Virus record (IMG/VR): IMGVR_UViG_3300021088_000008
Span: 1-64,000 of that record
Length of the DNA: 64,000 nt
From: a virus
Reading direction: 5' to 3' (one strand)
Shown here: piece by piece, positions 1,410 to 36,455 of the stretch
Layout of the letters: each line of letters starts with the position of its first letter
Numbering within the stretch: position 1 is the stretch's first letter
Notes under the pieces: generated by a model
What the model saw: the letters and a program-made list of their open reading frames with translations, nothing else
The model's database searches: none
Told to the model about the DNA's origin: nothing
Program-made: the position numbers and the translations under genes

Positions 1410-1934
1410 ATGACTCGAAAGCCGCACAAGACGATGACGCCCGACGAATACGCAGCGCTCCAGATCGAGGGTTGGCATGAGGTCTGCCGGAATGTGGACG
1501 GCTTCGGTGGTGTCGGGGTTCGATTCGTGACGGCGGCGAAGAAATCTGGCGAGATCGACGACGATTGGCCCGAGGATTACCTCGAACAATTCTGGAAGCA
1601 ATTTCCGCCCTTCCGGCGCCAAGCCAGGGCGAAGGTTGGCCAGAAGCTCGCCAAAATCCGCGCCGCCGGCGCCGTGACCTGGCAGGTTCTATTTGCTGGG
1701 GTTTTGAAATTCGCGGCGACGAATCCCGGCGAGTACGCGCCGGCGCCGATGGTGTGGTTGAACGACGGTCGATGGGACCGGGAATATGGAAAAGGATTCT
1801 CCAATGGAAAAACTCAAGGCGCCTCCGGTGACAAGATCGGGTTCTCCGGCCTCGCCGCCAGGATCCGCTATGGTGATCTCGACGGGGAGTCCCGCCCGGC
1901 TCCCGAAGATCTCGAACCTGTTAACCGACGTTGA
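1410..1934 (+). CDS. phage replication initiator/replisome organiser-like protein (C-terminal-type domain)
   Basis: EQFWKQFP...APMVWLNDGRWD matches the FWxxYP...PxxWLNxxRWxD motif of phage replication proteins; AAGGGG RBS. Confidence 0.65.
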   Translation: MTRKPHKTMTPDEYAALQIEGWHEVCRNVDGFGGVGVRFVTAAKKSGEIDDDWPEDYLEQFWKQFPPFRRQARAKVGQKLAKIRAAGAVTWQVLFAGVLKFAATNPGEYAPAPMVWLNDGRWDREYGKGFSNGKTQGASGDKIGFSGLAARIRYGDLDGESRPAPEDLEPVNRR

Positions 1935-2385
1935 AATTCCGCGGTCGGCCTGGGCGGCTTGGATCCCGTCAGAGGGATCGCGCCAGTTGCGGCGGACTCT
2001 GACCGAAGTCGAGAGGAGCGCGCTGGTCGCGCGCCGAGATGAGTTGGCGCCGGCGGTTCTCGGATTCGCTGATTTCGAGCGGAACAAGGTCGCGCTTGCG
2101 CTCGCGGATATGTTCGGGTCGTTTCCATCGATGCGGCAGAGCGGTAGCGAAGTCATGGCGCGGCTCGACGCAGCTCAACGGGTGCTTGAGCCTTACCCGC
2201 TGTGGGCGATCCGACGGGCTTGTCTGTCGATCCAGTCGAATGGCGTTTGGCGCGAGGAAAAATTCGATCGGCAATGGCCGCCGAGCGACGCCGAGATTGT
2301 GGCCAGTGTCCGCGCCGAGATGCGCCTCTACGCCAACCAATATCATTCTGCGGTCGCGCTGCTGGCCGCTACGGTCGAGGAGTAG
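1786..2385 (+). CDS. putative helicase loader-like replication protein
   Basis: Follows initiator; YPLWAIRRAC...WPPSDAEI motif typical of alphaproteobacterial phage loaders; start uncertain. Confidence 0.5.
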   Translation: MEKDSPMEKLKAPPVTRSGSPASPPGSAMVISTGSPARLPKISNLLTDVEIPRSAWAAWIPSEGSRQLRRTLTEVERSALVARRDELAPAVLGFADFERNKVALALADMFGSFPSMRQSGSEVMARLDAAQRVLEPYPLWAIRRACLSIQSNGVWREEKFDRQWPPSDAEIVASVRAEMRLYANQYHSAVALLAATVEE

Positions 2386-2387
2386 CG

Positions 2388-2750
2388 ATGAGATCCTTCA
2401 ACGAGCCATGGGAACCCGAGGACATCTTCGACCGCCACGAGGCCGCAGAGCGCCGCGCGTATCTGGACCGGATCAAGGAGCGGAATGCAGCGACCGCCGC
2501 ACAGGAGGCCGCCGCTGAGGCGGCACGGCATGAATCCGCACGGCAGTTCACTCTTGAGACCACGAAGCGGGCGATCCGGCGCGATTACGAACAGGCCGGA
2601 GTCGAACCGCTGCAGGTTGGTGGGGATGGAACACCGACGGTATCCCTCCCGCTGCTGCTGTCGATGGGGTGGACTGTGGCCGATTTCAACGGCGAGCGGC
2701 AGCTCGTGCGGCCAAATCATGAGAGACCATCACACAGAGGAGACGAATGA
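2388..2750 (+). CDS. hypothetical protein
   Basis: GAGGAG RBS, ATG 2388, plausible composition. Confidence 0.55.
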   Translation: MRSFNEPWEPEDIFDRHEAAERRAYLDRIKERNAATAAQEAAAEAARHESARQFTLETTKRAIRRDYEQAGVEPLQVGGDGTPTVSLPLLLSMGWTVADFNGERQLVRPNHERPSHRGDE

Positions 2751-2751
2751 A

Positions 2752-3309
2752 ATGGCCATGTTCAAGGAAATCAAGGTGATCACGTTATGGCAGCCATGGG
2801 CAAGCCTGATCATGATCGGCGCGAAGCCGTGGGAATTTCGCAGTTGGAACTACGCTACATGCGGCATCGGTGTTCGTATCGGCGACACGATCGGAATTCA
2901 TGCCGGCGCGCGACCAACCAAGCCGGCGGAAGTTCGAGACCTCCTGGCTCGCCTGGATGACGAGGATGGATCAACCGGATTGATCCCGGATCTGGCGCGG
3001 CCGCTTCTTGAGCGCCTGATGTCAGCGCACAAGTGCATGGGCATAATCGAGCACTCCGCGCTGCTCGGAACGGCGACAATCGGAAAGCCAATTCTGAGTT
3101 GTGATCTCAAACCTGAATGGGCAGCCCTGATCAACGATAGCGATCGGCTGGAGCATTGCAATTGGGCGTGGCCAATGTCGGATATCAGCCGATTCGATGA
3201 GCCGATCAAAATCAATGGCCATCAGGGATTTTGGAATTTCTCGATGCCAACCGAGCTTTGGGAACATCAAGCTGGAATTGATCACGTGCATCGCCGCGCG
3301 ATAGCTTGA
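2752..3309 (+). CDS. ASCH domain protein
   Basis: ITLWQPWASLI..GAKPWEFRSW...IGIHAG...GHQGFWN ASCH signature. Confidence 0.85.
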   Translation: MAMFKEIKVITLWQPWASLIMIGAKPWEFRSWNYATCGIGVRIGDTIGIHAGARPTKPAEVRDLLARLDDEDGSTGLIPDLARPLLERLMSAHKCMGIIEHSALLGTATIGKPILSCDLKPEWAALINDSDRLEHCNWAWPMSDISRFDEPIKINGHQGFWNFSMPTELWEHQAGIDHVHRRAIA

Positions 3310-3619
3310 GATGCTTCAAAACCTCAAGCGGATGCTGCTGGTCGAGGATGCCGGCACGGATCAGCGCGTCGGCGTAGTCGCCCAGGACCATGCCGAGCAT
3401 GGCCCGGCCGCGCTCGGTGAGCACCGTCGTCCTGGGTCTCACAGCTCCGGTGGGCGAGCCGCGGAGGTAGCCTTGGCCGATGAGCGCGTTCCGAGACTGG
3501 ACCTTGTGGGGGTCGCAGATGGTGACGTCGACCTCTCCATCGATATGTCCGATCAGCATGTTCCGTTGGCAAACGGTGAGTTTCCGGAGTTCGGTTTCGC
3601 TGATCGGGGCCATCGTCAT
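3212..3619 (-). CDS. hypothetical protein, possibly winged-helix
   Basis: GGAGA RBS; LTxxQRxML...LTERGRAML pattern; lone antisense gene. Confidence 0.5.
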   Translation of the reverse strand: MTMAPISETELRKLTVCQRNMLIGHIDGEVDVTICDPHKVQSRNALIGQGYLRGSPTGAVRPRTTVLTERGRAMLGMVLGDYADALIRAGILDQQHPLEVLKHLKLSRGDARDQFQLDVPKARLASRNSKIPDGH

Positions 3620-3912
3620 GGGCGGATCTCCTGGGTTCCATGCAGATTTATCTACCGATTTGCGCATTTGTCCATAGCCAGAGGTGATAATTGTCGCTAA
3701 AACTGATTCCGAAACGGAGGCGTGGCCATGAAGCTAGATCGCAACATCAACGGCACCGGTCGTGGCAAGTACGGGTTGGTAAACAATCGCAGCGTATTGA
3801 TCTCCAGCGCGAGAACCGACGCCTCCGGCAGGAGATCGCCGCGCTTGAGGCATTCGAAGATCCAATGCCGTGGCCGCCACGCCGACAATACCAATTTTCG
3901 GAGGATCAACTG

Positions 3913-4098
3913 ATGTCTGAATGCATCATTGATGGTTGCCAGAAAAATCTTCTCCTCGCTGAGATGGACGAGCGTGTAAAAGCTGAACGCGAGCGCTGCA
4001 TTGCCATCGTGCAGGCTGCTCGCCGAGGCGATATCGATGGTGACCTCAGGTGCCTTATCAGCCGCATGAAAGATCCTAACGACAGGGGCGAATCCTGA
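3913..4098 (+). CDS. hypothetical protein
   Basis: GGAGG RBS; AERERCIAIV motif common in phage early proteins. Confidence 0.5.
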   Translation: MSECIIDGCQKNLLLAEMDERVKAERERCIAIVQAARRGDIDGDLRCLISRMKDPNDRGES

Positions 4099-4448
4099 TG
4101 GCACAGCGAACGCCTGGACCGTGGAATTACGTGCGAGCTCCGCAGCCAACAGATGGTGAGTTTGATTGCGCCATCAGCGCCTTTATCGATGGCAAACGGC
4201 AGGTGATCGCCGAATGCTTCGGCCGCGTCGCTCATAACGTAAGGCCAGATTCGCAGGCGAACGCCGCTGCGATCGTCAAATGGGAGAACTCGTTCGACGA
4301 ACTCGTGAGAGTGCTGGAGGATCTGCTGAGATGCGGAAGCGCCATCATCGGAGCTTCGACCGATGATCCCCAAGCAGAAGAGGCATTCAAGATGTACGAC
4401 ACGGCGAGAAAGCTAGCGCGCGCCGCCCTCGCCAAGGCCAAGTCATGA
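4098..4448 (+). CDS. hypothetical phage protein (TPGPW family)
   Basis: TPGPW...ANAAAI...ARAALAKA pattern. Confidence 0.65.
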   Translation: MAQRTPGPWNYVRAPQPTDGEFDCAISAFIDGKRQVIAECFGRVAHNVRPDSQANAAAIVKWENSFDELVRVLEDLLRCGSAIIGASTDDPQAEEAFKMYDTARKLARAALAKAKS

Positions 4449-4601
4449 CTGATCCATCCATGCACGACGCGCTGACACCGCCGCGCCAGCGCCCCGGCTA
4501 TAACTGGGAGCGCCATGAAGGCTGCTCCTGCCGTTCGTGCCCGTGGAAGGGAAACTGCAGGGGCGAGGATACTGAGCACTGGATTCGGATTGGAGAAGAG
4601 C

Positions 4602-4799
4602 ATGAGACTTGAAGCCATCATCAAATCCGTCATCGAGGACGGCGAAGAGCTAAGCATCTCTATCAGAGGATGGGCTGATTCCGATCCAGTCGGGACAATG
4701 AACCGCCCGCTCGGCACAATCAAAATTCCTTCAAGCCCCCGCAACTGTCGCGCCTATCATGTCGGGCGCCGCTTGTTTATCGACGTGAAACCAGCCTAA
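4602..4799 (+). CDS. hypothetical protein
   Basis: GGAG RBS, ATG 4602. Confidence 0.45.
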   Translation: MRLEAIIKSVIEDGEELSISIRGWADSDPVGTMNRPLGTIKIPSSPRNCRAYHVGRRLFIDVKPA

Positions 4800-6332: not shown

Positions 6333-6781
6333 TGCCGTTCGAAGAGCTTGAGACGATCACCCGGGCGAATGCGCCGCCGATGGCGACGATCTCTTACAGC
6401 TTGGCCTACAAGGGATCGAAACGGCCAGATAGAGGCGACAGAAAACCGCGCCTCCTCATCACGATCCCGACGACGTTATGCGGGGCCTCAAAATCCGAAA
6501 CGTTTCGGCTGTTGATCGGAACTGGACCCGATGCCGGAAAGCTCATGATCAAAGGTGATAACGTTTCCCGTGATGGCGGTGTCGCGCCAGCTCAATTGGC
6601 GCATTTCTTTCGCTGGAACTTCGGTTTTGTCCCGCGGCTCGGCGATGATCTTTTCGAGGGCGAAAAGCGGCCCGTAAAGAAAATCTCGGATGAGGTATTC
6701 GAAATCTCGGTTCCGGTGAGTTGGTTCGAGGGGGCGATCGAGGAAATCCCGTCGATCCTGAAAAAGACCAAGGTGGCGTAA
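6332..6781 (+). CDS. hypothetical protein
   Basis: AGGAG RBS, stop/start overlap. Confidence 0.6.
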   Translation: MPFEELETITRANAPPMATISYSLAYKGSKRPDRGDRKPRLLITIPTTLCGASKSETFRLLIGTGPDAGKLMIKGDNVSRDGGVAPAQLAHFFRWNFGFVPRLGDDLFEGEKRPVKKISDEVFEISVPVSWFEGAIEEIPSILKKTKVA

Positions 6782-7452
6782 TGGACCTGAACCCCTACGA
6801 CGAGCTCGGCGTGGCGCGCGATGCGACCGAGGCGGAAGTCCGCAAGGCCTATCGCAAGAAGGCCAAGTCGACGCATCCGGATAGCGGGGGAGATCCCGCG
6901 GAATGGTCGCGCGTCTGCACATCGCTCGTAGTCCTGACCGATCCAAAGAAGCGCAAGACCTTCGACGACACCGGCCGCATTGAGGAGAATCGCCCGGACA
7001 ACGATCGCGCGGCCGCGCTGCAGATCATCGAAATGCACATGGGCACGATCTGCAACGAGTTCATCCAGAGCGGCTTCCTGCCCGATCGCGACCCGCGCCG
7101 CATTGACGTCATCAAGGTGATTCGCCACAAGGTGACATCTGAGATCGCTGAGGCCAAGGTCGGCATCAAGGGCGGCGAGAAGGTCATTGCGTTCATGCGC
7201 GACATGGCGAAGCGATTCACCCAGGCCAAGACGGCTACGGCAGGCGAGCCCGATCCGATCGGTCGCGGCCTCGAGCTACAGATCAGAAACGCCGAGGAGC
7301 AGATCGCCGGCATCCGGGCCAATGTGCGCCAGCGCGAGTTGGTCCTGACGATCCTGGATGGCTACCGGTTTGAGATGGATCGGCGCGGCCCCGAAAATCC
7401 GATGCGGGAATACAACGAGTATAGCCTCAAGTTCGGGATTTTTCCGTCGTGA
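6781..7452 (+). CDS. DnaJ (J-domain) protein
   Basis: NPYDELGV...VRKAYRKKAKSTHPDSGG...LTDPKKRKTFD, with HPD motif. Confidence 0.9.
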   Translation: MDLNPYDELGVARDATEAEVRKAYRKKAKSTHPDSGGDPAEWSRVCTSLVVLTDPKKRKTFDDTGRIEENRPDNDRAAALQIIEMHMGTICNEFIQSGFLPDRDPRRIDVIKVIRHKVTSEIAEAKVGIKGGEKVIAFMRDMAKRFTQAKTATAGEPDPIGRGLELQIRNAEEQIAGIRANVRQRELVLTILDGYRFEMDRRGPENPMREYNEYSLKFGIFPS

Positions 7453-8283: not shown

Positions 8284-8612
8284 TGACGAAGCCGTTTGTC
8301 AGGTCCCGCCGGCAGAACGGCAAGCTCTGCACATATTGCGCGCGGCCGATGAGCACCGACGTTCCGCTGCTCTACCCCACACGGGATCACGTCGAGCCGA
8401 GGTCCAAGGGCGGCCGCATCCTGGTTTGGGCATGCGCCACGTGCAACCACGTCAAGCGGGACATGACCGAAGAGCAATGGGCGGTGTACCGATTTGAGCA
8501 TGATTATTGGTGGAGACCGGGCCGGCGCCGAGTGCCTACGAACTGGAGGCCGCATCATCATCGCGAAAATGCCGGCTGCCCAAAGTCTTTCGCCGCCGAG
8601 GAATCCAAGTGA
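8283..8612 (+). CDS. HNH endonuclease adjacent to TerL
   Basis: CTYC...TRDHVEPRSKGG...ACATCNHVK. Confidence 0.85.
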   Translation: MTKPFVRSRRQNGKLCTYCARPMSTDVPLLYPTRDHVEPRSKGGRILVWACATCNHVKRDMTEEQWAVYRFEHDYWWRPGRRRVPTNWRPHHHRENAGCPKSFAAEESK

Positions 8613-10294
8613 ACATCCCCAAGATTGAGTACCAGACCGAGAGCCTCCCGGTTCTGGCGATGAACTGGAAACAGCCGGAATATGCGGCGATCTTCCGGGC
8701 GCGGCTCGAGAACCTCGAAAAGCTCCGCGAGCATCCGGAGCGATTGCCCGAGCTCAAGATCTATTACGCGGCGCACCCGGCCGACTTCATCAACGACTGG
8801 GGTGTAACGCACGACCCCCGCAACGCCGACGTCGGTCTGCCGACGCTGATCCCGTTCATTCTGTTTCCGCGGCAGCGCGAGTGGATTGACTGGGTAATCG
8901 ATCGCTGGAAGAACCGGCGACCCGGCCTGTGCGAGAAATCGCGCGACATGGGGGTGTCGTGGCTGGCGCTGTCGCTGTCCTGCACGCTGTGCCTGTTCAA
9001 CGATGGCGTGGCGATCGGGTTCGGCTCGCGCAAGACGGAATACGTCGACAAGATAGGAACCTACAAACCGCTCTTACCGAAGGGGCGCATGTTCATGGAG
9101 CATCTGCCCGAAGAGTTCCGCGGCGGGTTCGTCCCCTGGCGCGATGCGCCGTACATGCGCATCACGTTCCCAGAGACCGGCTCCATCATCGCTGGCGAAG
9201 GCGGTGATGACATCGGCCGCGGCGATCGAACCACGCTGTATTTTTTCGATGAGGAGGCCCACCACCCGCGCCAGGAGCTCGTAGCAGCTGCTCTATCGCA
9301 GACGACCAATTGCCAGATCGGGATGAGCTCGGTCCGCGGCATGAACAACCTGTTCGCGCAGAAGCGCTGGGGCGGAAAAATCGACGTCTTCATTTTCGAT
9401 TGGCGTGAGGACCCACGCAAAGATGAGGCCTGGTACGAACGCCAGTGCGAAGACTTGGACCCAGTCATCGTCGCCCAGGAGATCGACCGGGACTATTCGG
9501 CCTCGATCCATGGTGTGGTCATCCCGGGCCTGTGGGTGCGCGCGGCGATCGACGCCAAGAAAAAGCTCGGCATCGCGCCATCGGGCAAGAAGGGCGTTGC
9601 GTTCGACGTCGCCGACGAGGGGGACGACAAGAACGCGATCGCGCGCTGCGAGGGGACCGAGGTCGTCGAGACCGACGAATGGAGCGGCAAAGGCGGCGAT
9701 ATCTTCTCGTCGACGGAATACGTCTTCGATGTCTGCGATGAGAACGGATACCCCGAGTTCCGATACGATGCCGACGGCATGGGCGCCGATGTCCGCGGTG
9801 ACGCCCGGGTGATCAACGAGCGCCGCGTCAAGAACAAGGCGCGGGTGATTCGGGCGATCGGCTACCGTGGCTCGGAGAGCGTCTATGACCCTGAAGGGAT
9901 CGTCGAGGGCACCATTGGCTCAGAGGGCGACGCCGGCCGCACCAACCAAGACTATTTCGGGAATCACAAGGCGCAATCGTGGTGGTCGCTACGGAAGCGG
10001 TTCCAGCGGACTTATCGCTGGGTCGAGACCGGCGTGACGTGCGCGCCGGACGATATCATCTCGCTGAATTCCGAGAATCCGAACCTGATGAAGCTCGTCG
10101 CAGAGTTGAGCCAAGCCACGTACAAGCAAAACGAGGTCGGTAAGATCATCATTGAAAAGAAGCCGAATGGCCGGAAGAGCCCGAACCAGGCCGACGCTGT
10201 TGTGATCCATTACGCGCCGATGGAGCAGCCACCGGTCGAGATCACGATGGACATGCTGAGGCAGATCGCGCAGGCAGGCGCACGGAGAAGATAG
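8609..10294 (+). CDS. terL: terminase large subunit
   Basis: LFPRQ adenine-binding motif, EKSRDMGVSW Walker A variant, YFFDEE Walker B, FDVADEG and SPNQADA nuclease motifs; GTG start with GAGG RBS. Confidence 0.92.
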   Translation: MNIPKIEYQTESLPVLAMNWKQPEYAAIFRARLENLEKLREHPERLPELKIYYAAHPADFINDWGVTHDPRNADVGLPTLIPFILFPRQREWIDWVIDRWKNRRPGLCEKSRDMGVSWLALSLSCTLCLFNDGVAIGFGSRKTEYVDKIGTYKPLLPKGRMFMEHLPEEFRGGFVPWRDAPYMRITFPETGSIIAGEGGDDIGRGDRTTLYFFDEEAHHPRQELVAAALSQTTNCQIGMSSVRGMNNLFAQKRWGGKIDVFIFDWREDPRKDEAWYERQCEDLDPVIVAQEIDRDYSASIHGVVIPGLWVRAAIDAKKKLGIAPSGKKGVAFDVADEGDDKNAIARCEGTEVVETDEWSGKGGDIFSSTEYVFDVCDENGYPEFRYDADGMGADVRGDARVINERRVKNKARVIRAIGYRGSESVYDPEGIVEGTIGSEGDAGRTNQDYFGNHKAQSWWSLRKRFQRTYRWVETGVTCAPDDIISLNSENPNLMKLVAELSQATYKQNEVGKIIIEKKPNGRKSPNQADAVVIHYAPMEQPPVEITMDMLRQIAQAGARRR

Positions 10295-11493: not shown

Positions 11494-12029
11494 GTTCAAA
11501 AATGTTCAAAAAGTTCAAAGATGCCTGCCAGCCCGGCTATCGCCGATTGAGCCTCGGATCATCCTTCATCGCAAAGCGAGCCTCGCCGTAGAACGGAGCG
11601 AGGGAGTAACGGCGAGCGGGAACTTCACCTTCCGACCGCGATCGATTGCCGCCAAGGGGATCGATCGGAAACTGAGGCAAGTACGGCATTTTTGTTTCCT
11701 GTTTGCGGGAGAGTGATTCGCAAGCCCGGGCGGCTGGCCCCCGATATCACGGGCACCTCAGCTCTACTCGCTGCCACCCTCGGGGTGGAATGCTTGGTAC
11801 CTCAACCGCATGGCATAGATGCCGGGTCTTGCGGAAGGACGGCTATGCCTTTAACAGTTCAAAGAATGTTCAAATGTTCAAAGCCGGGGTGATTCGATGG
11901 CGCGCGGCGGATTTCGGAAAAACAGCGGACCGAAGCTTGATGCAGATGGAAAGGCATTGAAGCCGTACAAGCGTCGCGATGGGGAAAGTTCAGAGAGTTC
12001 AAACGGGGAAAGTTCAAACGTTGTTCAAA
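11494..12029. repeat. three clusters of GTTCAAA heptamers
   Basis: Perfect copies at 11494, 11504, 11513, 11857, 11868, 11876, 11997, 12012, 12023; variant GTTCAGA at 11988. Confidence 0.8.
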
Positions 12030-15000
12030 TGCGTGCGGCCAAGGCTGTGCCGGCCGAGCCAAAGGCCGAAGATGACCCTGCGATCAATCCCCGCGCCTGG
12101 GCGATGATGCTCCCTGAGATCGAGGAGATCAGCCGGCGGTATTCGGCGAAGAAAGAGCGGACGTCGGCCGACAACCCGTTCCAACTGCCAGCGTTCCCCA
12201 AGGCCGCGGTTCCATCCGATCCCAAGCTGCTGATGGCGCAGGACAGCGCCCTAACGGCAAATCTGGGGTTCGCCTCGAATCAGTGGCTCGCCGGCGGCGA
12301 TGGCGGGTTCGCCGGCGAAGGGTTCATGTTCTTGGGCTACACCTACCTGTCGGAGCTCGCGCTGCGCCCCGAGTACCGCGTCATGGCCGAGACGATCGCG
12401 GATGATGCGACCCGGAAATGGATTGATTTCGACGTCGTTGGCGATGAGAAGACGCAGCAGGAGGACCGCGAGAAGGACCCGGCCGGCTACGACGAGCGCA
12501 TGGCCGATCCAGACGAGCGCAAGAAGCGCGTCAACGGCGCCGGCAAGACGGACAAGGTCAAGGCGCTGCAGGACGACCAGCTGCGCCTGGCGGTCCGCGA
12601 CCGCTATTACGAGCAGGCGCGCAACGGCGGATTCTTCGGCCGCAGCCATCTCTTCCACGACATCCGAACCAACGATTCGGACGACATCAACGTCGAGGAG
12701 CTCAAGAACCCGATCGGGAATGGCCGCGACGCGCTCAGCAAGACCAAGGTTCCGATAGGATCGTTCAAGGCGCTGAAGACGATCGAGCCCATGTGGGCCT
12801 ACCCGCTGATGTACAACGCCGCATATCCGTGGCGCCAGGACTGGTACAATCCGCAAGTCTGGTACGTGAACGGCCAGGAGTTTCACGGCTCGCGGTTGCT
12901 GACATTCATTCCGCATCCGGTGCCGGACATGCTCAAGCCGGCCTACGCGTTCGGCGGGCTCAGCCTAACCCAGATGGCGAAGCCGTATGTCGACCGCTGG
13001 GTCACCACCGTCTCGAGCGTGAACGCGCTGATCCACTCGTTCTCGGTCATGGTTCTCGCGACCGATCTGTCGACGCTGATGCAGCCAGGCAACATGGCCG
13101 CACTGATGGCGCGCCTCGCGATGTTTAATATGTTGCGCGATAATCAGGGCGTTTTTGCCATCAACAACAAGACTGAGGACTTCAAGAACGTCTCGGCCTC
13201 GCTGGCCGGCTTGCACGAGCTCCAAGCGCAAAGTCAGGAGCATATGTGTGTTCAGGCCGGAACCCTAATCGAGACGGACCGCGGTCCAGTCCCGATTGAG
13301 GGCATGACCACAAATGATCAGGTGTTGACCCGTAATGGCTTTGCTTCTATCAACTGGATAGGAGTTACCGGGCACGTCGACACTTTGATCAGAATCGAGG
13401 CTGGCGACTCCATTATCTCGGTCACGAAAGAGCACCCGATATGGTCGGAGACAGCCGACGATTTTGTCGCTGCGAAGAATGTGAATCCTTCCCACCGCCT
13501 CTTCGTGCTCGAAACCGTAAGCCCGGGAAATATGGGTCGTCCATCGCTTGGCGAGGTCGATGGTGGTGGCATACGAAAGAGGGCTATTACCGCGGTCCTA
13601 TCCCGGACGGCTATGAAATCCATCATGGCGATGAGGATGGCACCAACAACGAATGGGGCAATCTTGAGTTGCTCACCTATTCAGAACATCAGGCTCGCCA
13701 CATTCGGATTGGATTCAACGTCTACGATCGAACATACGCGAAAAAATGCGTGGTTTGCGGCGATGGTTTCACGAGCGTTTTCGTGGGTGAGAGATCTCGG
13801 TATTGCTCTCAATCCTGCAAATCAAAAGCCCTCAAAATTCGACGTGGCTGGAAACCTAGGCGGGATCCGAAGCGGTGCGAATGTTGCGGAGATATGTTCA
13901 CGCCAATACGTAAAAGCACCACTAGATTTTGTTCTGACAGATGCTATCAGCGCGACGGATACCGGAAACGCCGTGGCTCACTCGACAAGAGATGCCTCCA
14001 TTGCGGCGGGAAATTCACCCCAAAGCGAATCGATTGCAGATGCTGTTCTCCTGCGTGCAACCGCTCGCTCATTAACCAAAATCGGCGCGTTCAACGTGCC
14101 GCGACAGCCCGTCTATAACATCTCAGTTGCGAACGGATTTTTGCCAGAATTCTTCGCCAACGGAATCCTTGTTCATAATTGCTCCGTCAATCGGATCCCG
14201 CTCGTCAAGTTCACTGGAATCCAGCCTGCTGGGCTGAATGCATCGTCGGAAGGCGAGCTTGAGTGTTATGACACTACCATTGAGGGCTATCAGGCGCGCG
14301 TCCTCGACGGCAACCTGAGAACCACCATTAACCTCGAGCAACTCTCGTTGTGGGGCGAAATAGATCCGGAAATTACGCACCGATGGGAAAAGTTGCGACC
14401 GATTACGGAAGCCGAGCGCGGCCAGAAGCAAAAGGACGACGCGGACACCCGTGAGAAGTACGTCGACATGGGTTCGTTCTCGCCGCAGGAGATCCGCAAG
14501 ATCGCGATCGAGGATCCGGAGTTGCCGTTTGGGGGGTTGGATCCGGATGACGTTCCGAAGCCGCCGGCGGAGGAGGGCCTGCTCGGGCCTGGCGCGGGCG
14601 CCGCGGCGACCGAGTTCGAGAAAGAGGCCAGCGGCCAGGGCGGCGACAAGCCCGACAAGGGAGGCGGGGCTAGCGATGCCGTCCTCCCTTTCCTCGCGGG
14701 CGACGCTGAGTTCGTGGAATCGGACCACCCGCGCGCGCCAGACGGCAAGTTCGGAAGTGGCGGGGGAGCATCAGCGCCGGCCGAGCATCCCCATGGGAGC
14801 ACGCCGAAATTCCACGCAATGGTCACCAAGCACAAGATTCCAGAGGCGGCCAGTGAAGTCGCTAAGTCGGCGCGCGCGCTCAAACAGAAGCAAAGCACCG
14901 TTGCCAAATACGCGAAGTACATCACTTCCCTCAACGAGAAGGTGGACGAGATTACGAATTCATCCTCTTCGCCGGATCAGCTCATCTCGTTGCGCGACTT

Positions 15001-15772
15001 GGCTGAGGCTCCGACACCCGACGAAATTAACGATTTCGCGCGCGGTCTGGTCCGTGAGGGCAAGGTCAAGGACGTCCTTGGATTCGAGGACGATAAGGAT
15101 GGATTCAAGGACTTGATGGAGGAGCTCAGCCCGCAGGAGAAGCAAGACCTGATGATGCTCAAGGGGCGGCTGGAGGCGCTTTACCCGAAGGCATTCGAAG
15201 CGGCAAAGGAGACCCGTAAGATCGCGCTCGAGACCGAGAAGGCGATGAAGGTCATGCGGAAGCGGATCGACAAGTCGCCATCGTATGACGATTTCGATGA
15301 CCCCGACGATATCGAGCATCTCTATGCTGACCAGATGGCTACGCTCTTTGATCAGGACCCGGAAGACCTCGATGATCTGATCGGCGTCACGAGCTATCTC
15401 GCTGATGAGCCAATATCGGCCGAATATGCCGAAATCCTCCACGGTCAGAAGGAGGACATCGACGAATCGGCCGCCGAGCGGCGACGGTTCGACGCGCTCT
15501 CAGAAGAGGAGCAGGCGGAGGAATTGGCGGAAAAGGCCGAGAAAGAGCGACTAGATAAGGCGATGGAGGACAAGCACCGAGAGTTGACCATCGAAATCGC
15601 CATGCGAGACGGCTGGAAACCGGAATTCAATGACATCGGCAGCGTGACGAATCGGCCTGAGAGCGTGAAACAGGTCGCGTCATCGCCGACCAGCATCGGG
15701 AAGATGTACCGATTCCTGAAGGCATCCGGCGTTGAGATCCCAGAGGCCGGGAAGCGATTCCTGGATTGGTGA
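11897..15772 (+). CDS. portal protein (DUF1073-type) with intein and long C-terminal extension
   Basis: FLGYTYLSELALRPEYR, ATRKWI, VPDMLKPAYAFGGLSL, IPLVKFTGIQPAGLNASSEGE portal motifs; position after terL. Confidence 0.9.
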   Translation: MARGGFRKNSGPKLDADGKALKPYKRRDGESSESSNGESSNVVQMRAAKAVPAEPKAEDDPAINPRAWAMMLPEIEEISRRYSAKKERTSADNPFQLPAFPKAAVPSDPKLLMAQDSALTANLGFASNQWLAGGDGGFAGEGFMFLGYTYLSELALRPEYRVMAETIADDATRKWIDFDVVGDEKTQQEDREKDPAGYDERMADPDERKKRVNGAGKTDKVKALQDDQLRLAVRDRYYEQARNGGFFGRSHLFHDIRTNDSDDINVEELKNPIGNGRDALSKTKVPIGSFKALKTIEPMWAYPLMYNAAYPWRQDWYNPQVWYVNGQEFHGSRLLTFIPHPVPDMLKPAYAFGGLSLTQMAKPYVDRWVTTVSSVNALIHSFSVMVLATDLSTLMQPGNMAALMARLAMFNMLRDNQGVFAINNKTEDFKNVSASLAGLHELQAQSQEHMCVQAGTLIETDRGPVPIEGMTTNDQVLTRNGFASINWIGVTGHVDTLIRIEAGDSIISVTKEHPIWSETADDFVAAKNVNPSHRLFVLETVSPGNMGRPSLGEVDGGGIRKRAITAVLSRTAMKSIMAMRMAPTTNGAILSCSPIQNIRLATFGLDSTSTIEHTRKNAWFAAMVSRAFSWVRDLGIALNPANQKPSKFDVAGNLGGIRSGANVAEICSRQYVKAPLDFVLTDAISATDTGNAVAHSTRDASIAAGNSPQSESIADAVLLRATARSLTKIGAFNVPRQPVYNISVANGFLPEFFANGILVHNCSVNRIPLVKFTGIQPAGLNASSEGELECYDTTIEGYQARVLDGNLRTTINLEQLSLWGEIDPEITHRWEKLRPITEAERGQKQKDDADTREKYVDMGSFSPQEIRKIAIEDPELPFGGLDPDDVPKPPAEEGLLGPGAGAAATEFEKEASGQGGDKPDKGGGASDAVLPFLAGDAEFVESDHPRAPDGKFGSGGGASAPAEHPHGSTPKFHAMVTKHKIPEAASEVAKSARALKQKQSTVAKYAKYITSLNEKVDEITNSSSSPDQLISLRDLAEAPTPDEINDFARGLVREGKVKDVLGFEDDKDGFKDLMEELSPQEKQDLMMLKGRLEALYPKAFEAAKETRKIALETEKAMKVMRKRIDKSPSYDDFDDPDDIEHLYADQMATLFDQDPEDLDDLIGVTSYLADEPISAEYAEILHGQKEDIDESAAERRRFDALSEEEQAEELAEKAEKERLDKAMEDKHRELTIEIAMRDGWKPEFNDIGSVTNRPESVKQVASSPTSIGKMYRFLKASGVEIPEAGKRFLDW
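13247..14179 (+). mobile_element. class 1 intein (311 aa) in portal
   Basis: Block A CVQAGTLIETDRG, block B TKEHPIW, block F PVYNISV, block G FFANGILVHN/C; removal restores QSQEHM-CSVNRIPLVK. Confidence 0.92.
13441..14118 (+). CDS. HNH homing endonuclease with Zn-ribbon repeats, overprinted in the -1 frame inside the intein
   Basis: GPIPDGYEIHHGDEDGTNNEWGNLELLTYSEHQARH HNH core plus three CxxCGxxF...CSxxC repeats; true start uncertain. Confidence 0.85.
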   Translation: MVGDSRRFCRCEECESFPPPLRARNRKPGKYGSSIAWRGRWWWHTKEGYYRGPIPDGYEIHHGDEDGTNNEWGNLELLTYSEHQARHIRIGFNVYDRTYAKKCVVCGDGFTSVFVGERSRYCSQSCKSKALKIRRGWKPRRDPKRCECCGDMFTPIRKSTTRFCSDRCYQRDGYRKRRGSLDKRCLHCGGKFTPKRIDCRCCSPACNRSLINQNRRVQRAATARL

Positions 15773-15775
15773 GGA

Positions 15776-16417
15776 TCAGCGAGGCTTGATTGAGGTCATT
15801 GCAGCGCGGCCGATATACTCGGCATAAGCCGGTGGGATCGCCTGGGTGATCTCGCGCCAGTTCATCCAATCGATGCCCATGGCATCGCGAGCTTCGCCGA
15901 TCGATCGTGCCCTCGGGATTCTGTAACCGTCCCCGAAGTGACCTTGCGGATGCTCGCCATATACTCCCACGAGCCGCTTGCCGCGGCACGAGCATTTCTT
16001 CCATATGCAGCAACCGAAGCTAGTTTCGAAGAGCCGATGGCGGCGAACGCCAAGGCCGAAGTGGGTACCGCATAGCGTCATCGCGTTGCGCAGAGGCGCC
16101 CCGATCACGTTCTCGATCACGGTCATCGGGCATGCGGCCAGCAATTTCCGCACATCGGCAATCAGCGAAACATGGGAATTATCGTTCCACGAAGCGTTGA
16201 ATCCGACATGCGCCTGACATGGAGGGCTCGCCCATACCAAATCGAAACGCTGTAAATCGAATGGCAGCCGAAGCGCGTCGGCCTGCACGAATCGGAACGG
16301 ATAAGCAGGCTGCGGTTTACTGTCGACGCCGATCAAGTCGAATCCGGCCCGATGCAATCCCATGGATGCACCACCGGCGCCGCAGAACAGATCAAGAGCA
16401 ATAGGCCTGTGGTTCAC
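15776..16417 (-). CDS. DNA cytosine-C5 methyltransferase (short form)
   Basis: LDLFCGAGG motif I, ASPPCQ motif IV, IENV motif VI, RHRLFE. Confidence 0.9.
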   Translation of the reverse strand: MNHRPIALDLFCGAGGASMGLHRAGFDLIGVDSKPQPAYPFRFVQADALRLPFDLQRFDLVWASPPCQAHVGFNASWNDNSHVSLIADVRKLLAACPMTVIENVIGAPLRNAMTLCGTHFGLGVRRHRLFETSFGCCIWKKCSCRGKRLVGVYGEHPQGHFGDGYRIPRARSIGEARDAMGIDWMNWREITQAIPPAYAEYIGRAAMTSIKPR

Positions 16418-25616: not shown

Positions 25617-26729
25617 ATGGACCGGAACCAAGCAATCGCCGAGTTTAACAAGGTGAGGCACGTCCTTAACCACGAGGGCGGGGTTATTTTCGATGGCGCC
25701 CGAATGTTCATTCCCGATGAGTGGAAGAACACGGGGGACAAGTCGCTCAGACAAATGGCGTTCGATGCCGCCGGCACCTTGGGCACCGATCCGAATGCGG
25801 CGCTCCCCGCGATGCTCACCACCGGCATCAGCCCGGATGTGATCCGGTTCGTATTTGCCCCGCTGCAGATCGCCAAGATCCTCGGTGGTGAGCGCAAGGT
25901 CGGCGACTGGCTGATGGAAACCTACATCTTCCCGGTCATCGAGGAGAACGGCGAAGTTTCCAGCTACGACGATTATTCGAACAACGGCCGCACCGGCATC
26001 AACTTCAATTACCCGCAACTCCAGTCCTATCTGTTCCAGACCTTCGTCAACTACGGCGAGCGGGAGACCGAGCGCGCCGGCTTGATGCGGATCAACTACG
26101 TCGGCGAACTCACCAGCGCTGCGGCCGGATTGCTCAATCGATTCGGAAACCTCGGATATGCCTTCGGCCTGGCTGGCCTGCAGAACTACGGCTTGATCAA
26201 CAACCCGTACCTCTCGGCGTTTTTGACGCCCGCCATCAAGGCGTGGGGCGGGACATCATGGTTCAACGCCGGCTCGCCGGCCGCAACTGCCAACGAGGTC
26301 TACAACGACATCCTGGCGGTGGTCGAGCAGATCATCAATCAGACCAACAGTGCGGTTGAGATGGACTCGCCGATGACGCTGGCGCTATCGCCGCAGTCGC
26401 AACTTGCCCTGGAATTCGCGAACTCGTTCGGCGTCTTCGTCAAGGATCTCCTGAAGCGCGGCTTCCCGAACATGAAAATTGTCCCCGCGCCGCAGTACGG
26501 GCAGAAAACCACCAACAACACCCAGGGCGATTCCGCCATCGGGAACGTGTTTCAGATCATCGTCGATAACATCGATGGCGGCAAAGTCGCCTATCCAGCC
26601 TACAACGAGAAGCTCCGCGCACACAAACTGATCCCGCAGGCCTCAAGTTGGCTGCAGAAATACACGAGCGGGATCTTCGGAACGGTTTGCCGCATGCCAG
26701 TTGGCATCGCCGGCATGCTCGGAGTTTAG
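25617..26729 (+). CDS. major capsid protein (DUF2184-type)
   Basis: KVGDW, GEVSSYDDYSNNG, QSYLFQT..YGERE, GLQNYGLINNP, EKLRAH. Confidence 0.88.
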   Translation: MDRNQAIAEFNKVRHVLNHEGGVIFDGARMFIPDEWKNTGDKSLRQMAFDAAGTLGTDPNAALPAMLTTGISPDVIRFVFAPLQIAKILGGERKVGDWLMETYIFPVIEENGEVSSYDDYSNNGRTGINFNYPQLQSYLFQTFVNYGERETERAGLMRINYVGELTSAAAGLLNRFGNLGYAFGLAGLQNYGLINNPYLSAFLTPAIKAWGGTSWFNAGSPAATANEVYNDILAVVEQIINQTNSAVEMDSPMTLALSPQSQLALEFANSFGVFVKDLLKRGFPNMKIVPAPQYGQKTTNNTQGDSAIGNVFQIIVDNIDGGKVAYPAYNEKLRAHKLIPQASSWLQKYTSGIFGTVCRMPVGIAGMLGV

Positions 26730-26766: not shown

Positions 26767-27723
26767 ATGAACGCAAAAACCGGTACCGACAAAACGTGCC
26801 CCGCTTGCGGGGCATTGTTTTATGTGCAGGCCCATCGCGCCACGGGGGCCAAATTCTGTTCAATGAAATGCCTTTGGGCCGGGCGCCGCCCGCGCCCTGG
26901 GCCAGAGCTTCCCGTTACTCTGGTCTGCGCCAATTGTGGGAAGGAATTTCCTGTTCGACCTTATCGCAAGGATATTGCCAAGTTCTGCTCTCCGCGATGT
27001 GGTGCGCTTTTCAGTGGCGACAAACTAAAAAAGGCGAGAGCAGCAAAGCGAAGGCCAGGCGTAAAAACTTGTTCAAAGTGTAAAATCGAGAAACCGCACT
27101 CCGATTTCTGGAAACACTCCACGAGTTCTGACAGGATGCGCGGCGTCTGTATTCCGTGCCGTCAATCCGTTCACGATCAATGGATGGCTGCAAACCCTGG
27201 AAAGAAATTGGAGGCGGATCGTCGCTATTATGCAGAACATGCCGTTCAATTGAACGAATCCTCTCGGGCCAAATATGCTGCGAATCCAGAGCCTTTCTCC
27301 GAGCGTAACCGGGCGTGGCGCGCAGCTAACCCAGAAAAGGTAACGGCATCTAATATTCGAAAGCGGGAAAAGCACGGCGATAAGTTGCGCGCTGGAAAGC
27401 GTGCGCATTACCGGAAAAACAGCGCCATTTATAAAGCCCGAGCCGTTGCAAGGATGAAGCACATTAAGATCGCGACGCCGCCGTGGGCCGACATGGCGAA
27501 GATCTTCGCGATCTACGCCGAGTGCGAGCGCCTGACGAAAGAAACCGGTATTCCGCATCATGTCGACCACATTTACCCGTTGCGGGGAAGAACGATGTGC
27601 GGACTCCACGTCGAGGGAAATCTGCAGATCCTGCACGCCGTTGTAAATCTGAGGAAATCGAATAGAGTTCACGGAGACGATGGGGTGCCAGATTATTCCC
27701 TTCCAGGTGAAAATTGTGTATGA
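26767..27723 (+). CDS. free-standing HNH endonuclease with Zn-ribbon repeats
   Basis: HHVDHIYPLRGRTMCGLHVEGNLQIL...NLRKSN; CxxC...FCSxxC repeats; lower GC. Confidence 0.9.
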   Translation: MNAKTGTDKTCPACGALFYVQAHRATGAKFCSMKCLWAGRRPRPGPELPVTLVCANCGKEFPVRPYRKDIAKFCSPRCGALFSGDKLKKARAAKRRPGVKTCSKCKIEKPHSDFWKHSTSSDRMRGVCIPCRQSVHDQWMAANPGKKLEADRRYYAEHAVQLNESSRAKYAANPEPFSERNRAWRAANPEKVTASNIRKREKHGDKLRAGKRAHYRKNSAIYKARAVARMKHIKIATPPWADMAKIFAIYAECERLTKETGIPHHVDHIYPLRGRTMCGLHVEGNLQILHAVVNLRKSNRVHGDDGVPDYSLPGENCV

Positions 27724-33952: not shown

Positions 33953-35010
33953 TGCGACGACGATCTTTCATCGCAGCAGCACTGGCAGCATCCGCGCTGC
34001 TGGCGCTTGGGTGGCTGGGGTCGGCGGATGCGGTCTCTGGAAGCCGGTTGCTTCTGCTTGGGGGACCCCCTGGATGGGTCCAAAAAGGTGCGATCATTGA
34101 TGAGGTTTTTACAACTTCTCAGTATTACCCGCGCCCGATCGCGCAGGAACTAGTCGATACCAGAGCTTCATCCAAATTTCTTACGCCAACGAACGGAGTG
34201 CTTGTTTCTATCGGGAATAACGTGCTGCCACTTAGCAGCGCTGGTTTGTTGGTTGAACCGTCCGCGACAAATGGCGCGCTTCAGTCTCAAAACTTCTCTG
34301 CGACGTGGGCAGGAGCTCACAGCGGGATCGCCACGGCAAATGCCACAACGGCACCGGATGGAACTACGACAGCAAGCAAGATTGCTTATGGGTCGGCGAC
34401 GAACCAAAACTATCTGTTTGCGCAAGCTCAGACTTACGTCACGTCATCGGGGTATATCGTTTATACTTACGCCAAAGCAGCGGACTACAATTTTCTGGCG
34501 CTTGTGACGTTCGACGGAACCGACAATTTCGGTGTCATCTATAATTTGAGCACTGGAGCAGTTGTCGGAAATATCACCAACGCGCCGGTAGGAACGATAA
34601 CGGCAAGCGGCTCGTCCGCATTAGCAAATGGTTGGTATCTTTGCTGGTTCGCATTCACCGCGACAAATACCGGCTCGGCGTCGTTCGGCATCCAGGCAGG
34701 GCCGCAGCAAAGCAACAGCCAGAATATCAATACCCCCGGCGCTGGGGCGACCGGGAGTGGAATCTATGTTTGGGGTTATCAGAGCATGCTCGGATCGCTG
34801 CCATCGTCATACACTCCAACCACAACATCGACCGCTCCGCGCGCTGCCGACTCAATCGTCATTCAAAGAACTGGTATCGGGCGCATCGTTTTCACATTCG
34901 ACAATGGGAGCACGCAGACGATCTCTGGCATCAACCCTGCGGCTCAATACACTATCCCGACAAACCTGAACCGCGCGCTGATCACCCGAATAACGGGATA
35001 TGCATCGTGA
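33952..35010 (+). CDS. spike/fibre protein with carbohydrate-binding-like domain and Tat-like signal
   Basis: MRRRSFIAAALAA...; GLLVEPSATN, APDGTTTA, NGWYLC, SSYTPTT...RAAD. Confidence 0.65.
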   Translation: MRRRSFIAAALAASALLALGWLGSADAVSGSRLLLLGGPPGWVQKGAIIDEVFTTSQYYPRPIAQELVDTRASSKFLTPTNGVLVSIGNNVLPLSSAGLLVEPSATNGALQSQNFSATWAGAHSGIATANATTAPDGTTTASKIAYGSATNQNYLFAQAQTYVTSSGYIVYTYAKAADYNFLALVTFDGTDNFGVIYNLSTGAVVGNITNAPVGTITASGSSALANGWYLCWFAFTATNTGSASFGIQAGPQQSNSQNINTPGAGATGSGIYVWGYQSMLGSLPSSYTPTTTSTAPRAADSIVIQRTGIGRIVFTFDNGSTQTISGINPAAQYTIPTNLNRALITRITGYAS

Positions 35011-36455
35011 AGTGGGGCCTAGCTTTATTTATGCTCGCCTTCGCCCAGGACGCGAGCGCTCAATCGATGTCGCTGACGTTTCCGACATCGCTCACGATGG
35101 CATCAGGCCTACCGCTGCCATTCACGGGCGTCACCATATCCGATCCGAATCCAAATGCGACAACGGACACGGTCACGATTTTAATGAGCGGATCGGCTGG
35201 AGGAACACTGAGCGGTCCTGGCTTGACGGGGTCTAACCCCTATACGCTGATCGACGCGCCGGCCAATATCACGGCGGATCTGCAGGCCCTGACATACACC
35301 CCTGCGGTCGTTGGAAACACAAATGCGATTTTCGATATCTCGGTGTTTAGCACAGCAATCGCCACCTTGCAGCCTTCGGCGGCAGAGGTACAGATTCAAA
35401 ATATCAATCTGACCGATGAGGTACCGTACCCAGCGCCGTCCTGTACGTTTGTCTCGAGAAACTTCAAGGGCGTCAATATTTCCGGGGCGGAAAACACTTA
35501 CCCGGCAACGTCGCAATTCAATTATATCTACCCTGCGAATGTGGAACTGGATTACTTCGCATCGAAGGGATTCGGGCTGATTCGCATGCCGGTCCAAATC
35601 CGCCGCGTGCAAGAGTTTTCCTATGGCGACCTTGATCCCATCGGGCGCACCGACGAACCGGCTGTATCCGGGTCGGTGCCGGGAACGCAAACCAACCTAT
35701 TGGCGATGAAGTCAGTTTTTGATCACGCATGTGCCGACAACCTCTATGTCGTGATTGATTCGCACGATTACGGTTACATTCAGGATACGAACACCAATAC
35801 GTCTAGACCGATCGGATCCGATCCCGAGGCAACAGCGCAGTTCAAGGATTGGTGGATTCGGGTATCGACCAAATTTAGCAATTACCCAAACTTGATCTTT
35901 GGGATTATGAATGAACCATATGCGCAGACGCCCGGACAGTGGCAAGTGGGCGCGGTCGCGGCCATCAACGGCATTGCGCAGGTAACGACTTCGCGGATGG
36001 TGTTCATCCCAGGTACATCGTACACAGGTGGACATTCCTGGGTTTCGAGCGGAAACGCTGCAGCATGGGCTGGCTACGTTCCGCCAGCAGGGATGCAAAT
36101 CGCGTTCGAGATGCACGAATATCTTGATAGCGATTTTTCCGGATCGCATGCGGTTTGCGCTGGCAATGGTTCGGCGCCGATGACAGCAGCAACCGCATGG
36201 GCACAAGCGAATGGGTTTAAGATTTGGATCGGAGAAATCGGCTGGTCGCAAGATCCGAGCTGTCCTCCTGACGCCGCAAATCTGATGGGCTATTTCACGG
36301 CAAACGAACCCACATATCTCGGGTGGGCTTACTGGGTTGGCGGCAGTCAGGCGTTCTACGGCTCGTATATGTACACCGTGCAGCCGACCGGCTATCCAAC
36401 CGGACCGTTTGCGGATAAGCCGCAGATGTCGGTCCTCATTGGAAATCTGAATTGA
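35007..36455 (+). CDS. glycoside hydrolase family 5 endoglucanase with signal peptide
   Basis: GVNISGAE, IRMP, IDSHDYG, FGIMNEP (acid/base), FEMHEYLD, IGEIGW (nucleophile), GWAYW. Confidence 0.88.
   Translation: MKWGLALFMLAFAQDASAQSMSLTFPTSLTMASGLPLPFTGVTISDPNPNATTDTVTILMSGSAGGTLSGPGLTGSNPYTLIDAPANITADLQALTYTPAVVGNTNAIFDISVFSTAIATLQPSAAEVQIQNINLTDEVPYPAPSCTFVSRNFKGVNISGAENTYPATSQFNYIYPANVELDYFASKGFGLIRMPVQIRRVQEFSYGDLDPIGRTDEPAVSGSVPGTQTNLLAMKSVFDHACADNLYVVIDSHDYGYIQDTNTNTSRPIGSDPEATAQFKDWWIRVSTKFSNYPNLIFGIMNEPYAQTPGQWQVGAVAAINGIAQVTTSRMVFIPGTSYTGGHSWVSSGNAAAWAGYVPPAGMQIAFEMHEYLDSDFSGSHAVCAGNGSAPMTAATAWAQANGFKIWIGEIGWSQDPSCPPDAANLMGYFTANEPTYLGWAYWVGGSQAFYGSYMYTVQPTGYPTGPFADKPQMSVLIGNLN

Follow-up and report, generated by a model that had tools for sequence, protein, structure and literature searches.

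Intein homing endonucleases are normally in-frame domains of the intein that carries them. In the canonical HNH inteins, reportedly described by Dalgaard et al. in 1997, the endonuclease domain is likewise in frame. Antisense LAGLIDADG genes inside inteins have been known for some time, and the "splicing first, endonuclease invades later" model predicts an unfused endonuclease gene inside an intein. The subject here is the portal gene in a 64,000-nucleotide (nt) stretch of virus DNA (positions 1 to 64,000 of record IMGVR_UViG_3300021088_000008), which is called the window below. This gene carries an intein whose central bases, read in the -1 frame, encode an HNH nuclease. The nested gene is probably a homing-endonuclease gene of the free-standing type that lies one base out of step inside a portal mini-intein, is translated internally, and homes. 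It shares with canonical HNH inteins the combination of a Hint domain and an HNH at the same insertion point. In those inteins, however, the nuclease is part of the intein polypeptide, whereas here it is a separate open reading frame (ORF) and the polypeptide holds an unconserved, apparently unstructured stretch in its place.

The nearest described inteins are those reported by Gosselin, Arsenault and Gogarten (bioRxiv 10.1101/2025.01.02.630785). The preprint describes intein endonucleases that occupy a separate frame and are either EndoVII-like or antisense. The same text presents a survey of PhagesDB actinobacteriophages and proposes that inteins are invaded by a free-standing endonuclease gene. 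Those inteins resemble the present one in having the Hint domain in an open host frame, an endonuclease ORF at the usual insertion region in another frame, and terL among the host genes. The same-strand case is placed "in reading frame 3 relative to the intein" in that text, which is read here as the same -1 offset. The carriers found here range beyond that survey, from soil viral contigs to phages of Clostridium, Tetrasphaera, Acinetobacter, and Rhodobacteraceae, with the portal among the host genes. By the criteria for separate-frame inteins, the window intein belongs with them: its Hint domain shares the frame of an uninterrupted host gene, and the endonuclease ORF lies between the splicing blocks in another frame.

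A second relative is the ShiLan domain, which was reported in 2025 by the same laboratory (PMC11855218) as an out-of-frame HNH with zinc fingers inside a methylase, without a splicing domain. The ShiLan domain and the nested gene have in common a stop-free host frame, a stop codon in the last bases of the insert, and a patchy distribution consistent with homing. The ShiLan insert is, according to that text, thought to stay in the methylase, whereas here a complete class-1 Hint domain flanks the HNH and the peptide is presumably spliced out. A genome announcement (PMC12613952) is reported to concern a methylase with an out-of-frame HNH as well. When the phage collection was searched by tblastn with the window HNH and with an HNH of the related contig L003 (site b, see below), no Mycobacterium phage was among the matches listed.

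The third comparison is with the fractured genes of Dassa et al. 2009 (PMC2677866), in which a free-standing endonuclease gene lies between split-intein halves. In both cases, the endonuclease gene sits at the insertion point between the N and C parts and overlaps the intein C part with its 3′ end. The fractured host gene, as described there, consists of two ORFs joined by trans-splicing and its endonuclease is GIY-YIG or Vsr-like, whereas the portal here is continuous over 11897-15772. The family of the window intein has a fractured-like relative of its own in the terL of Vibrio phage 1.245.O (L101), unlike the continuous window portal. The family joins a ShiLan-like hidden HNH, a complete intein of essential packaging genes, and a fractured-like relative. 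A literature search with subscription journals outside its scope found no out-of-frame HNH inside an intein, and the nearest reports were the Gogarten-laboratory papers and PMC12613952. Inteins with a separate-frame endonuclease and out-of-frame HNHs without an intein have already been described, and the combination of such an HNH with an intein appears, as judged from that search, to be new.

The features on which the argument rests are the following (aa, amino acids; pLDDT, predicted local distance difference test).

11897..15772, + strand: portal gene with intein; 1291-aa precursor, 980 aa once spliced; Pfam Phage_portal_3, 1.1e-50
13247..14179, + strand: class-1 intein in the portal frame, 311 aa, from Cys1 to His-Asn, followed by Cys+1 at 14180-14182
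13247..13516, + strand: Hint N-lobe, intein residues 1-90, includes block B; pLDDT 91-97
13426..13432, + strand: Shine-Dalgarno-like GAAAGAG, 8 nt before the ATG at 13441, formed by the K-E codons of block B
13441..14118, + strand: nested HNH_3 nuclease ORF, 225 aa, with three Cys4 zinc ribbons, in the -1 frame relative to the portal
13520..14047, + strand: linker made when the portal frame reads through the HNH gene (+1 frame of that gene), intein residues 92-267; without stops
13525..13531, + strand: G GGA AAT heptamer (X_XXY_YYZ) in the portal frame, a possible -1 slip site
13588..13692, + strand: HNH_3 catalytic core (Pfam match), ORF residues 50-84, RGPIPDGYEIHHGDEDGTNNEWGNLELLTYSEH
13591..13596, + strand: junction of a window-specific in-frame deletion of 54 nt (18 codons) that removed a "..LHRxxWExH" segment
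13747-13818, 13876-13944, and 13993-14058, + strand: three CxxC...CxxxC zinc ribbons, with invariant or nearly invariant Cys columns
14057..14179, + strand: Hint C-lobe, intein residues 271-311, blocks F and G (VYN...FFANGILVHN); pLDDT 92-97

The intein interrupts the portal between ...SQEHM and CSVNRIPLVKF.... The first-pass annotation, which was made from the letters alone, had described a complete class-1 intein, and each of its elements is found where it was placed. Cys1 is the TGT at 13247 (Cys in 13 of 14 aligned relatives, Ser in L031) and block B reads TKEH at 13424-13435, with T60 and H63 invariant in 14 sequences. Block F contains VYN (GTC TAT AAC, 14111-14119), and the HN/C junction is CAT AAT/TGC at 14174-14182; V289, Y290, H310, and N311 are invariant among the 14 aligned inteins. 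The same annotation expected a Hint match in the portal frame and an HNH_3 match in the other one. The latter is well above its cutoff, whereas Pfam Hint_2 reaches 26.1-27.8 bits and even at 27.8 stays just under its cutoff of 28.4. The fold itself is clear in an AlphaFold (AF2) model of the portal-frame intein that was computed with a 14-row alignment as input. Foldseek returns 23 matches to this model at E <= 0.001, and those listed are inteins and related Hint-type domains (hedgehog, bacterial intein-like), of which the Mtu RecA splicing domain scores highest (TMt 0.79). With its nucleophile, TxxH, HN+Cys, Hint fold, and intein-less alleles, the window intein has what defines class 1 and is predicted to splice.

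The two lobes are separated by a stretch of a different kind. In the model the linker falls below a pLDDT of 50 at residues 92-169 and 190-267, and block means across 92-267 are 30-54. What the portal frame encodes would thus be a mini-intein whose two lobes are joined by an unconserved linker of ~175 aa, predicted to be disordered. A search for related loci with the portal-frame intein peptide gives zero relatives, which fits a centre that is not conserved.

In the -1 frame, the same bases read as a nuclease. The nested ATG at 13441 shares bases with the block B codons CCG ATA TGG (P-I-W), and the TAA at 14116-14118 falls inside the block F codons GTC TAT AAC, as had been noted from the letters. 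The HNH that was proposed for 13441-14118 is borne out by profile searches. Pfam HNH_3 matches with 1.8e-10 and 40.7 bits (cutoff 24.8) over profile positions 11-45 of 46, and the match begins only at position 11 because the first segment is deleted in the window copy. PHROG HNH endonuclease families match as well (best 1.4e-19). Within the core, G57, H62, and N74 are invariant and H61, N70, H83, and H87 almost invariant among 14 relatives. The three Cys4 ribbons that follow, which had likewise been proposed, are presumed to be DNA-binding modules. The only solved relative found by sequence is I-HmuI (1U3E), whose HNH_3 core matches the family profile of the nested HNHs at E = 0.0033. I-HmuI is intron-encoded and carries NUMOD/helix-turn-helix DNA-binding modules rather than Cys4 ribbons.

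In the structure model of the nested ORF, the core is predicted to consist of a strand at 58-62, a strand at 75-79, and a helix at 80-94, a possible beta-beta-alpha arrangement at pLDDT 74-87. Ribbons 1 and 2 are modelled at pLDDT 74-94 and ribbon 3 at 51-62, and the ribbon region resembles the YacG zinc ribbon weakly in structure (Z 4.4). A wide structural alignment (VIA-align) finds HNH nucleases at Z 3.0-3.8 only, among them I-PpoI, the ZRANB3 HNH, the GVE2 HNH, and I-HmuI at Z 3.0-3.6. The -1 frame also contains a conserved C-x-C-x-x-C at 13465-13482, in the same bases as a Hint-N strand (EFVxAENV-like). C11 and C14 of the HNH are almost invariant in 14 copies, and L089 and L090 retain the CxxC despite a differing host-frame sequence. 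This motif could be a zinc knuckle or a by-product of the overlap.

Which of the two frames is maintained as a protein can be read from the pattern of change. In a codon alignment of the central region of 10 portal inteins (L021, which lacks the HNH core, and five non-portal inteins are excluded), all 45 pairs differ most at position 3 of the HNH frame, the equivalent of position 2 in the portal frame. Amino acid identity is higher in the HNH frame in 45/45 pairs as well (means 0.47 versus 0.28 in the portal frame), so that the conservation of the -1 frame among homologs, on which the first-pass annotation had made its reading depend, is observed. A frame-blind DNA alignment gives the same picture. 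Portal-frame position 3 is the most variable from 13247 to ~13500, HNH-frame position 3 from ~13500 to ~14010, and portal-frame position 3 again from ~14010 to 14179. The same double switch is found in six site-b inteins. At 13427-13516, where the start of the HNH lies over the last Hint-N strands, change is reduced at all three positions, which suggests constraint in both frames. The HNH frame is under purifying selection, and the host-frame centre is merely kept free of stops. Protein-level selection on the endonuclease frame rather than the host frame had been set as the criterion for the centre in this analysis, and this is the pattern found.

Stop codons follow the same logic. Across the span of the ORF, the third frame has 11 stops and the portal and HNH frames have none, in line with the stop-free centre that had been reported for the portal frame. 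When sequences are shuffled such that the HNH protein is preserved, the portal frame is stop-free in 6.6-12.8% of 20,000 trials. When the portal peptide is preserved instead, the HNH frame is stop-free in 0/20,000 trials. From this asymmetry it follows that the HNH frame is the one shaped as coding, while the portal frame of a single copy could be open by moderate luck. The luck would have to be repeated, as there are no host-frame stops over the -1-frame ORF in any of 16 inteins, with 7-36 stops in the third frame. The 16 inteins quantified are that of the window, 13 on 12 IMG/VR contigs, and those of phiCDHM19 and TJE1. The probability of a stop-free host frame in the shuffles is 0.0004-0.35 per intein, and for phiCDHM19 (31% GC) the values are 0.0004 and 0.

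The shuffles also account for the constant offset of the nested gene. The HNH coding sequence is expected to hold ~1.4-2.2 stops in its +1 frame and ~13-14 in its +2 frame. Nested HNHs are always at -1 because only a host reading of the +1 frame plausibly leaves the essential gene intact. A general rule that a same-strand nested endonuclease must be at host frame -1, because only the +1 frame of the nested gene is nearly stop-free, would be new. It seems to hold for the ShiLan HNH and for the EndoVII-like inteins too. The rule is testable.

The arrangement recurs. The window and 100 fetched loci were searched by tblastn and the translations inspected, which gave 13 further inteins on 12 IMG/VR contigs. 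In all 18 inteins examined, those of four published phages included, the layout is the same, with the Hint halves in the host frame, the HNH at host frame -1, and the host frame uninterrupted. The suggestion that an alternative-frame HNH with both frames open might recur among related inteins is thereby confirmed. Site a, the site of the window or one residue off, is occupied in the portals of the window, L003, L031, and L085. Site b lies 20 codons further downstream and is occupied in the portals of L003, L007, L008, L009, L021, L022, and L088. The non-portal IMG/VR carriers are L089, L090, and L052, and the host gene of L089 and L090 is terL by Terminase_6N/6C, with Terminase_6N split at profile position 101/102. 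Four published phages carry the intein in terL, namely Clostridium phiCDHM19, Tetrasphaera TJE1, Acinetobacter Highwayman, and Rhodobacteraceae LS06-2018-MD07, and the family is unannotated even in these genomes. In Vibrio phage 1.245.O (NC_055736, ~1700-3450), the -1-frame HNH is present in terL and the host frame has central stops. RefSeq gives this terL as two coding sequences, lists a "hedgehog/hint domain protein" apart from terL, and has no entry for the HNH. Judged by its sequence, this locus represents a fractured-gene-like or decayed state of the same family. L003 has two inteins in a single portal gene, 20 codons apart (2807-3643 and 3704-4666), each with its own -1-frame HNH ORF (197 and 242 aa), and neither introduces a stop into the portal frame.

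The distribution among related portals is patchy. Of 83 portals, 73 are intein-less and read uninterrupted through ...QEHMA-SVxRIPLVKFTGIQPxGLNA-SSEGE.... The window clades with L004 and L005, whose N-exteins are 95% and 93% identical to its own (Shimodaira-Hasegawa-like approximate likelihood-ratio test, SH-aLRT, 100), and both are intein-less. L013, the sister of L003, is also without inteins. Scatter among such close relatives needs repeated gain or loss, as in homing elements. The relatives of the nested HNH outside inteins point to where it may have come from. Its family profile finds 61,466 proteins at E < 1e-3, most top hits being 170-300 aa long. From 150 listed representatives, 22 with extra length or an offset match were scanned, and all 22 have HNH_3 while none has a Hint domain. 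Free-standing relatives lie between terL and portal in the Pseudomonas phages PAE1 (gp3) and FBPa53 and in Sphaerotilus phage SN1. PAE1 gp3 is 30% identical over 74% of the query (tblastn) and falls in the same size range (~200 aa), but is an ordinary intergenic gene. Together with the match to I-HmuI, these relatives fit a scenario in which a free-standing endonuclease gene entered a mini-intein.

The mechanism that would follow from this anatomy has two products from one mRNA. Translation in the portal frame would give a precursor with the Hint N-lobe, an unstructured linker of ~175 aa, and the Hint C-lobe. Class-1 splicing through Cys1, TxxH, His-Asn, and Cys+1 would then excise the intein and leave the 980-aa portal. 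Ribosomes on the same mRNA would initiate at ATG 13441, and their product would be a nuclease in its own right, a 225-aa HNH_3/zinc-ribbon protein whose reading frame stops within block F. During co-infection, the nuclease would cut or nick intein-less portal alleles near ...QEHM/[A/S/C]SV..., and repair would copy the intein together with the nested gene into the cut allele.

Whether the nuclease is made as a separate product turns on its start. A -1-frame start codon between the upstream stop and the HNH core is found in every copy. The site-a start (four inteins) is an ATG across Ile/Val-Trp of block B, which is made possible by ATA in three cases and by GTA in one. In the site-b inteins and L031, the start is 21 nt further upstream across Arg/Lys-Cys, where AGA, AAA, or CGA precedes TGC in 7/8 copies and L003b has AGG, giving GTG. 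The codons involved are rare in the exteins (ATA 6/126 Ile, GTA 4/183 Val, AGA+CGA 10/186 Arg), but such A-ending codons are less rare in the AT-richer Hint parts. Their use at the starts is suggestive of start conservation, but the copies are related. Strong Shine-Dalgarno sequences precede the start in phiCDHM19 (AAAGGAG, 8 nt, GTG) and LS06-2018-MD07 (GGAGG, 7 nt, ATG). Internal initiation is the favoured route because the start is conserved in all copies and these two published phages have strong Shine-Dalgarno sequences. The separate product inferred in the first-pass annotation is thus favoured by the conserved starts and the two ribosome-binding sites. In the window, a hairpin (GTCGG-AGACAG-CCGAC, 13444-13459, + strand) begins 3 nt past the nested ATG and could affect initiation. 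A search of 12900-14500 against Rfam gives no intron or other RNA family (lone hit E = 0.67). A sigma-70 pattern scan detects no internal promoter, with a pattern that may not suit the host of this phage.

Another route to the nuclease would be a programmed -1 ribosomal frameshift in the crossover zone, yielding a fusion of N-extein, Hint-N, and HNH that ends in block F. X_XXY_YYZ heptamers do occur in this zone in 10/16 inteins, and GGGAAAT stands at the homologous place in 3/4 site-a inteins (window 13525, L003a, and L031). The lambda G/GT slip site is GGGAAAG, which GGGAAAT resembles. Six of the 16 inteins, phiCDHM19 among them, have no heptamer, however, and those present encode GK, PK, or KK dicodons of a basic HNH-frame stretch and may be by-products of it. 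A frameshift would also have no need of a start codon that is kept in all copies, nor of the strong Shine-Dalgarno sequences in the two phages, and this route is considered improbable. The nested HNH could alternatively serve the phage itself, as a packaging-associated HNH acting with terminase and portal or in attack on rival phages. Packaging factors of the HNH type are known (HK97 gp74 is one), all identified host genes are packaging genes (portal, or terL in L089, L090, and the four published phages), and the free-standing relatives mentioned above are located between terL and portal. Against such a service stand the many related portals, the nearest ones included, that do without the nested HNH, and its HNH_3 domain of the I-HmuI type, which is typical of homing endonucleases. 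The HNH is moreover always found with an intein, at two or more portal sites and in at least three distinct terL contexts, which is the pattern of a mobile element. A role of this kind is a little less probable still than frameshifting. That the double reading is an artefact, produced by two compensating indel errors or by two real frameshifts in a decayed in-frame HNH intein, is scarcely credible. An open portal frame would arise by chance in about 1 in 10 cases in a single copy, given the HNH coding sequence, but the same offset and switch points are found in 18/18 inteins from separate assemblies and published genomes, and purifying selection on the HNH frame extends across deep divergence. 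Compensating indels had been named at the outset as the finding that would overturn the dual reading. An independently assembled soil-metagenome contig, possibly from the source sample, is identical over 13100-14300 without indels, and the same holds over 13807-14033 for a 227-nt contig of another study.

Several observations weigh against an internally translated, active homing endonuclease in this window or reduce what the comparisons can bear. The sequencing runs listed with this stretch are soil metagenomes, none recorded as RNA. The Shine-Dalgarno-like site of the window is weak (-2.1 kcal/mol versus a background mean of -3.0), and only 9/17 candidate starts of the family reach <= -4.0 kcal/mol, compared with 29% of 536 background positions. 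The HNH model is only middling (pLDDT 72) and lacks a significant fold match; Foldseek with the whole model gives no match at E <= 0.001, only zinc-finger noise. Because the inteins are related to each other, neither the 16 to 18 instances nor the start-codon counts nor the codon usage can be treated as independent events. The codon alignment took the HNH-frame protein as its guide, a bias that the frame-blind alignment was made to address, and the portal tree comes from a quick search rather than a careful one. The LHRxxWExH segment is kept in 13/13 aligned relatives and absent from the window alone, as the first-pass annotation had suspected when it remarked on a shortened HNH without the LHR helix. 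Of 29 columns invariant in nine other portal-intein copies, the window lost four, all in the deletion. The catalytic H/N/H and all ribbon cysteines are intact, and the chances are roughly even that the window nuclease is weakened or dead though its ORF is intact.

The deletion gives rise to the strongest competing account, in which the HNH ORF of the window is a recent fossil. The 54-nt deletion would have killed the nuclease, and what persists would be a splicing mini-intein with a long linker. This account concerns the window copy only and is compatible with the explanation given for the family. It draws on the loss of all four invariant columns in a segment that the window alone of 14 aligned copies lacks, and on window-specific changes that are not concentrated at third positions (9, 5, and 6 at the three positions; 20 singletons). 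Decay within the family is demonstrated by L021 (5072-5803), a 244-aa intein that has lost the HNH catalytic core without acquiring a stop in either frame. L021 retains the N-terminal CxCxxC piece and the last zinc ribbon and looks like a decay intermediate. The preserved catalytic residues and cysteines speak for a nuclease that is still maintained, as does the beta-beta-alpha core that AF2 still predicts for the window copy. At codons shared by its three closest relatives, the window differs by 4 synonymous changes and by no non-synonymous one, counts too small to detect relaxed selection. A fossil is a real prospect for this one copy, although we hold it to be somewhat the less probable state.

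For the family as a whole, we incline to the view that it is a widespread, cross-phylum one in which a free-standing HNH sits in a mini-intein as an independently translated, overprinted gene, and that this is the long-postulated intermediate of intein evolution. Such an intermediate would lie between a mini-intein plus free-standing endonuclease on one side and the canonical bifunctional inteins or fractured genes on the other. The family supplies many intermediates of the kind that late invasion predicts, with both readings clearly maintained, and bears on how inteins acquire endonucleases. It also offers a decay series that leads from an intact HNH through the 18-codon deletion of the window and the loss of the core in L021 to the interrupted host frame of Vibrio phage 1.245.O. 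The new elements are the frame-specific evidence for selection, the range of phage groups and published genomes concerned, the frame rule, and a start codon embedded in block B. Dual coding at the edges would be new as well, in that ~25 codons give both the last Hint-N strands and the CxCxxC knuckle and the start is written in rare codons of block B. For annotation, it matters that gene callers give either the host gene or the nuclease and never both, so that nucleases have been missed in published packaging genes. For engineering, the family indicates a Hint domain that tolerates an arbitrary insert of ~175 aa and a nuclease dose that is separable from the dose of the host protein.

The portal belongs to a head module with the order terL, portal, DNA methyltransferase (minus strand), Mu-F-like head protein, NUDIX-protease, and major head protein. 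Both portal exteins are hit by PHROG portal families. The other features recorded in the window are the following.

6721-7449, + strand: DnaJ-domain protein (2.3e-13)
8507-10291: putative terL, in the head module of the window
15779-16417, - strand: DNA methyltransferase (PHROG 1.6e-29), abutting the portal stop codon
21914-23182, + strand: NUDIX hydrolase fused to a DUF2213/head-maturation-protease domain in a single 423-aa ORF
25617-26726: major head protein gene
26767-27720, + strand: 318-aa ORF immediately 3′ of the major head protein gene (PHROG endonuclease VII, 1.9e-16)
34632-36452, + strand: 607-aa ORF in the structural region, with a cellulase domain (glycosyl hydrolase family 5, 3.1e-37)

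In the C-extein of the portal (14180-15772, + strand, 530 aa), the match to portal families is confined to approximately the first 200 residues, and the remainder is an acidic low-complexity tail. The product of 34632-36452 may be a virion-associated depolymerase. The ORF at 26767-27720 has zinc-ribbon repeats with a faint similarity to the ribbons of the nested HNH (tblastn 1e-3, 26797-27042), and it is probably a second, free-standing homing-type endonuclease of the same phage.

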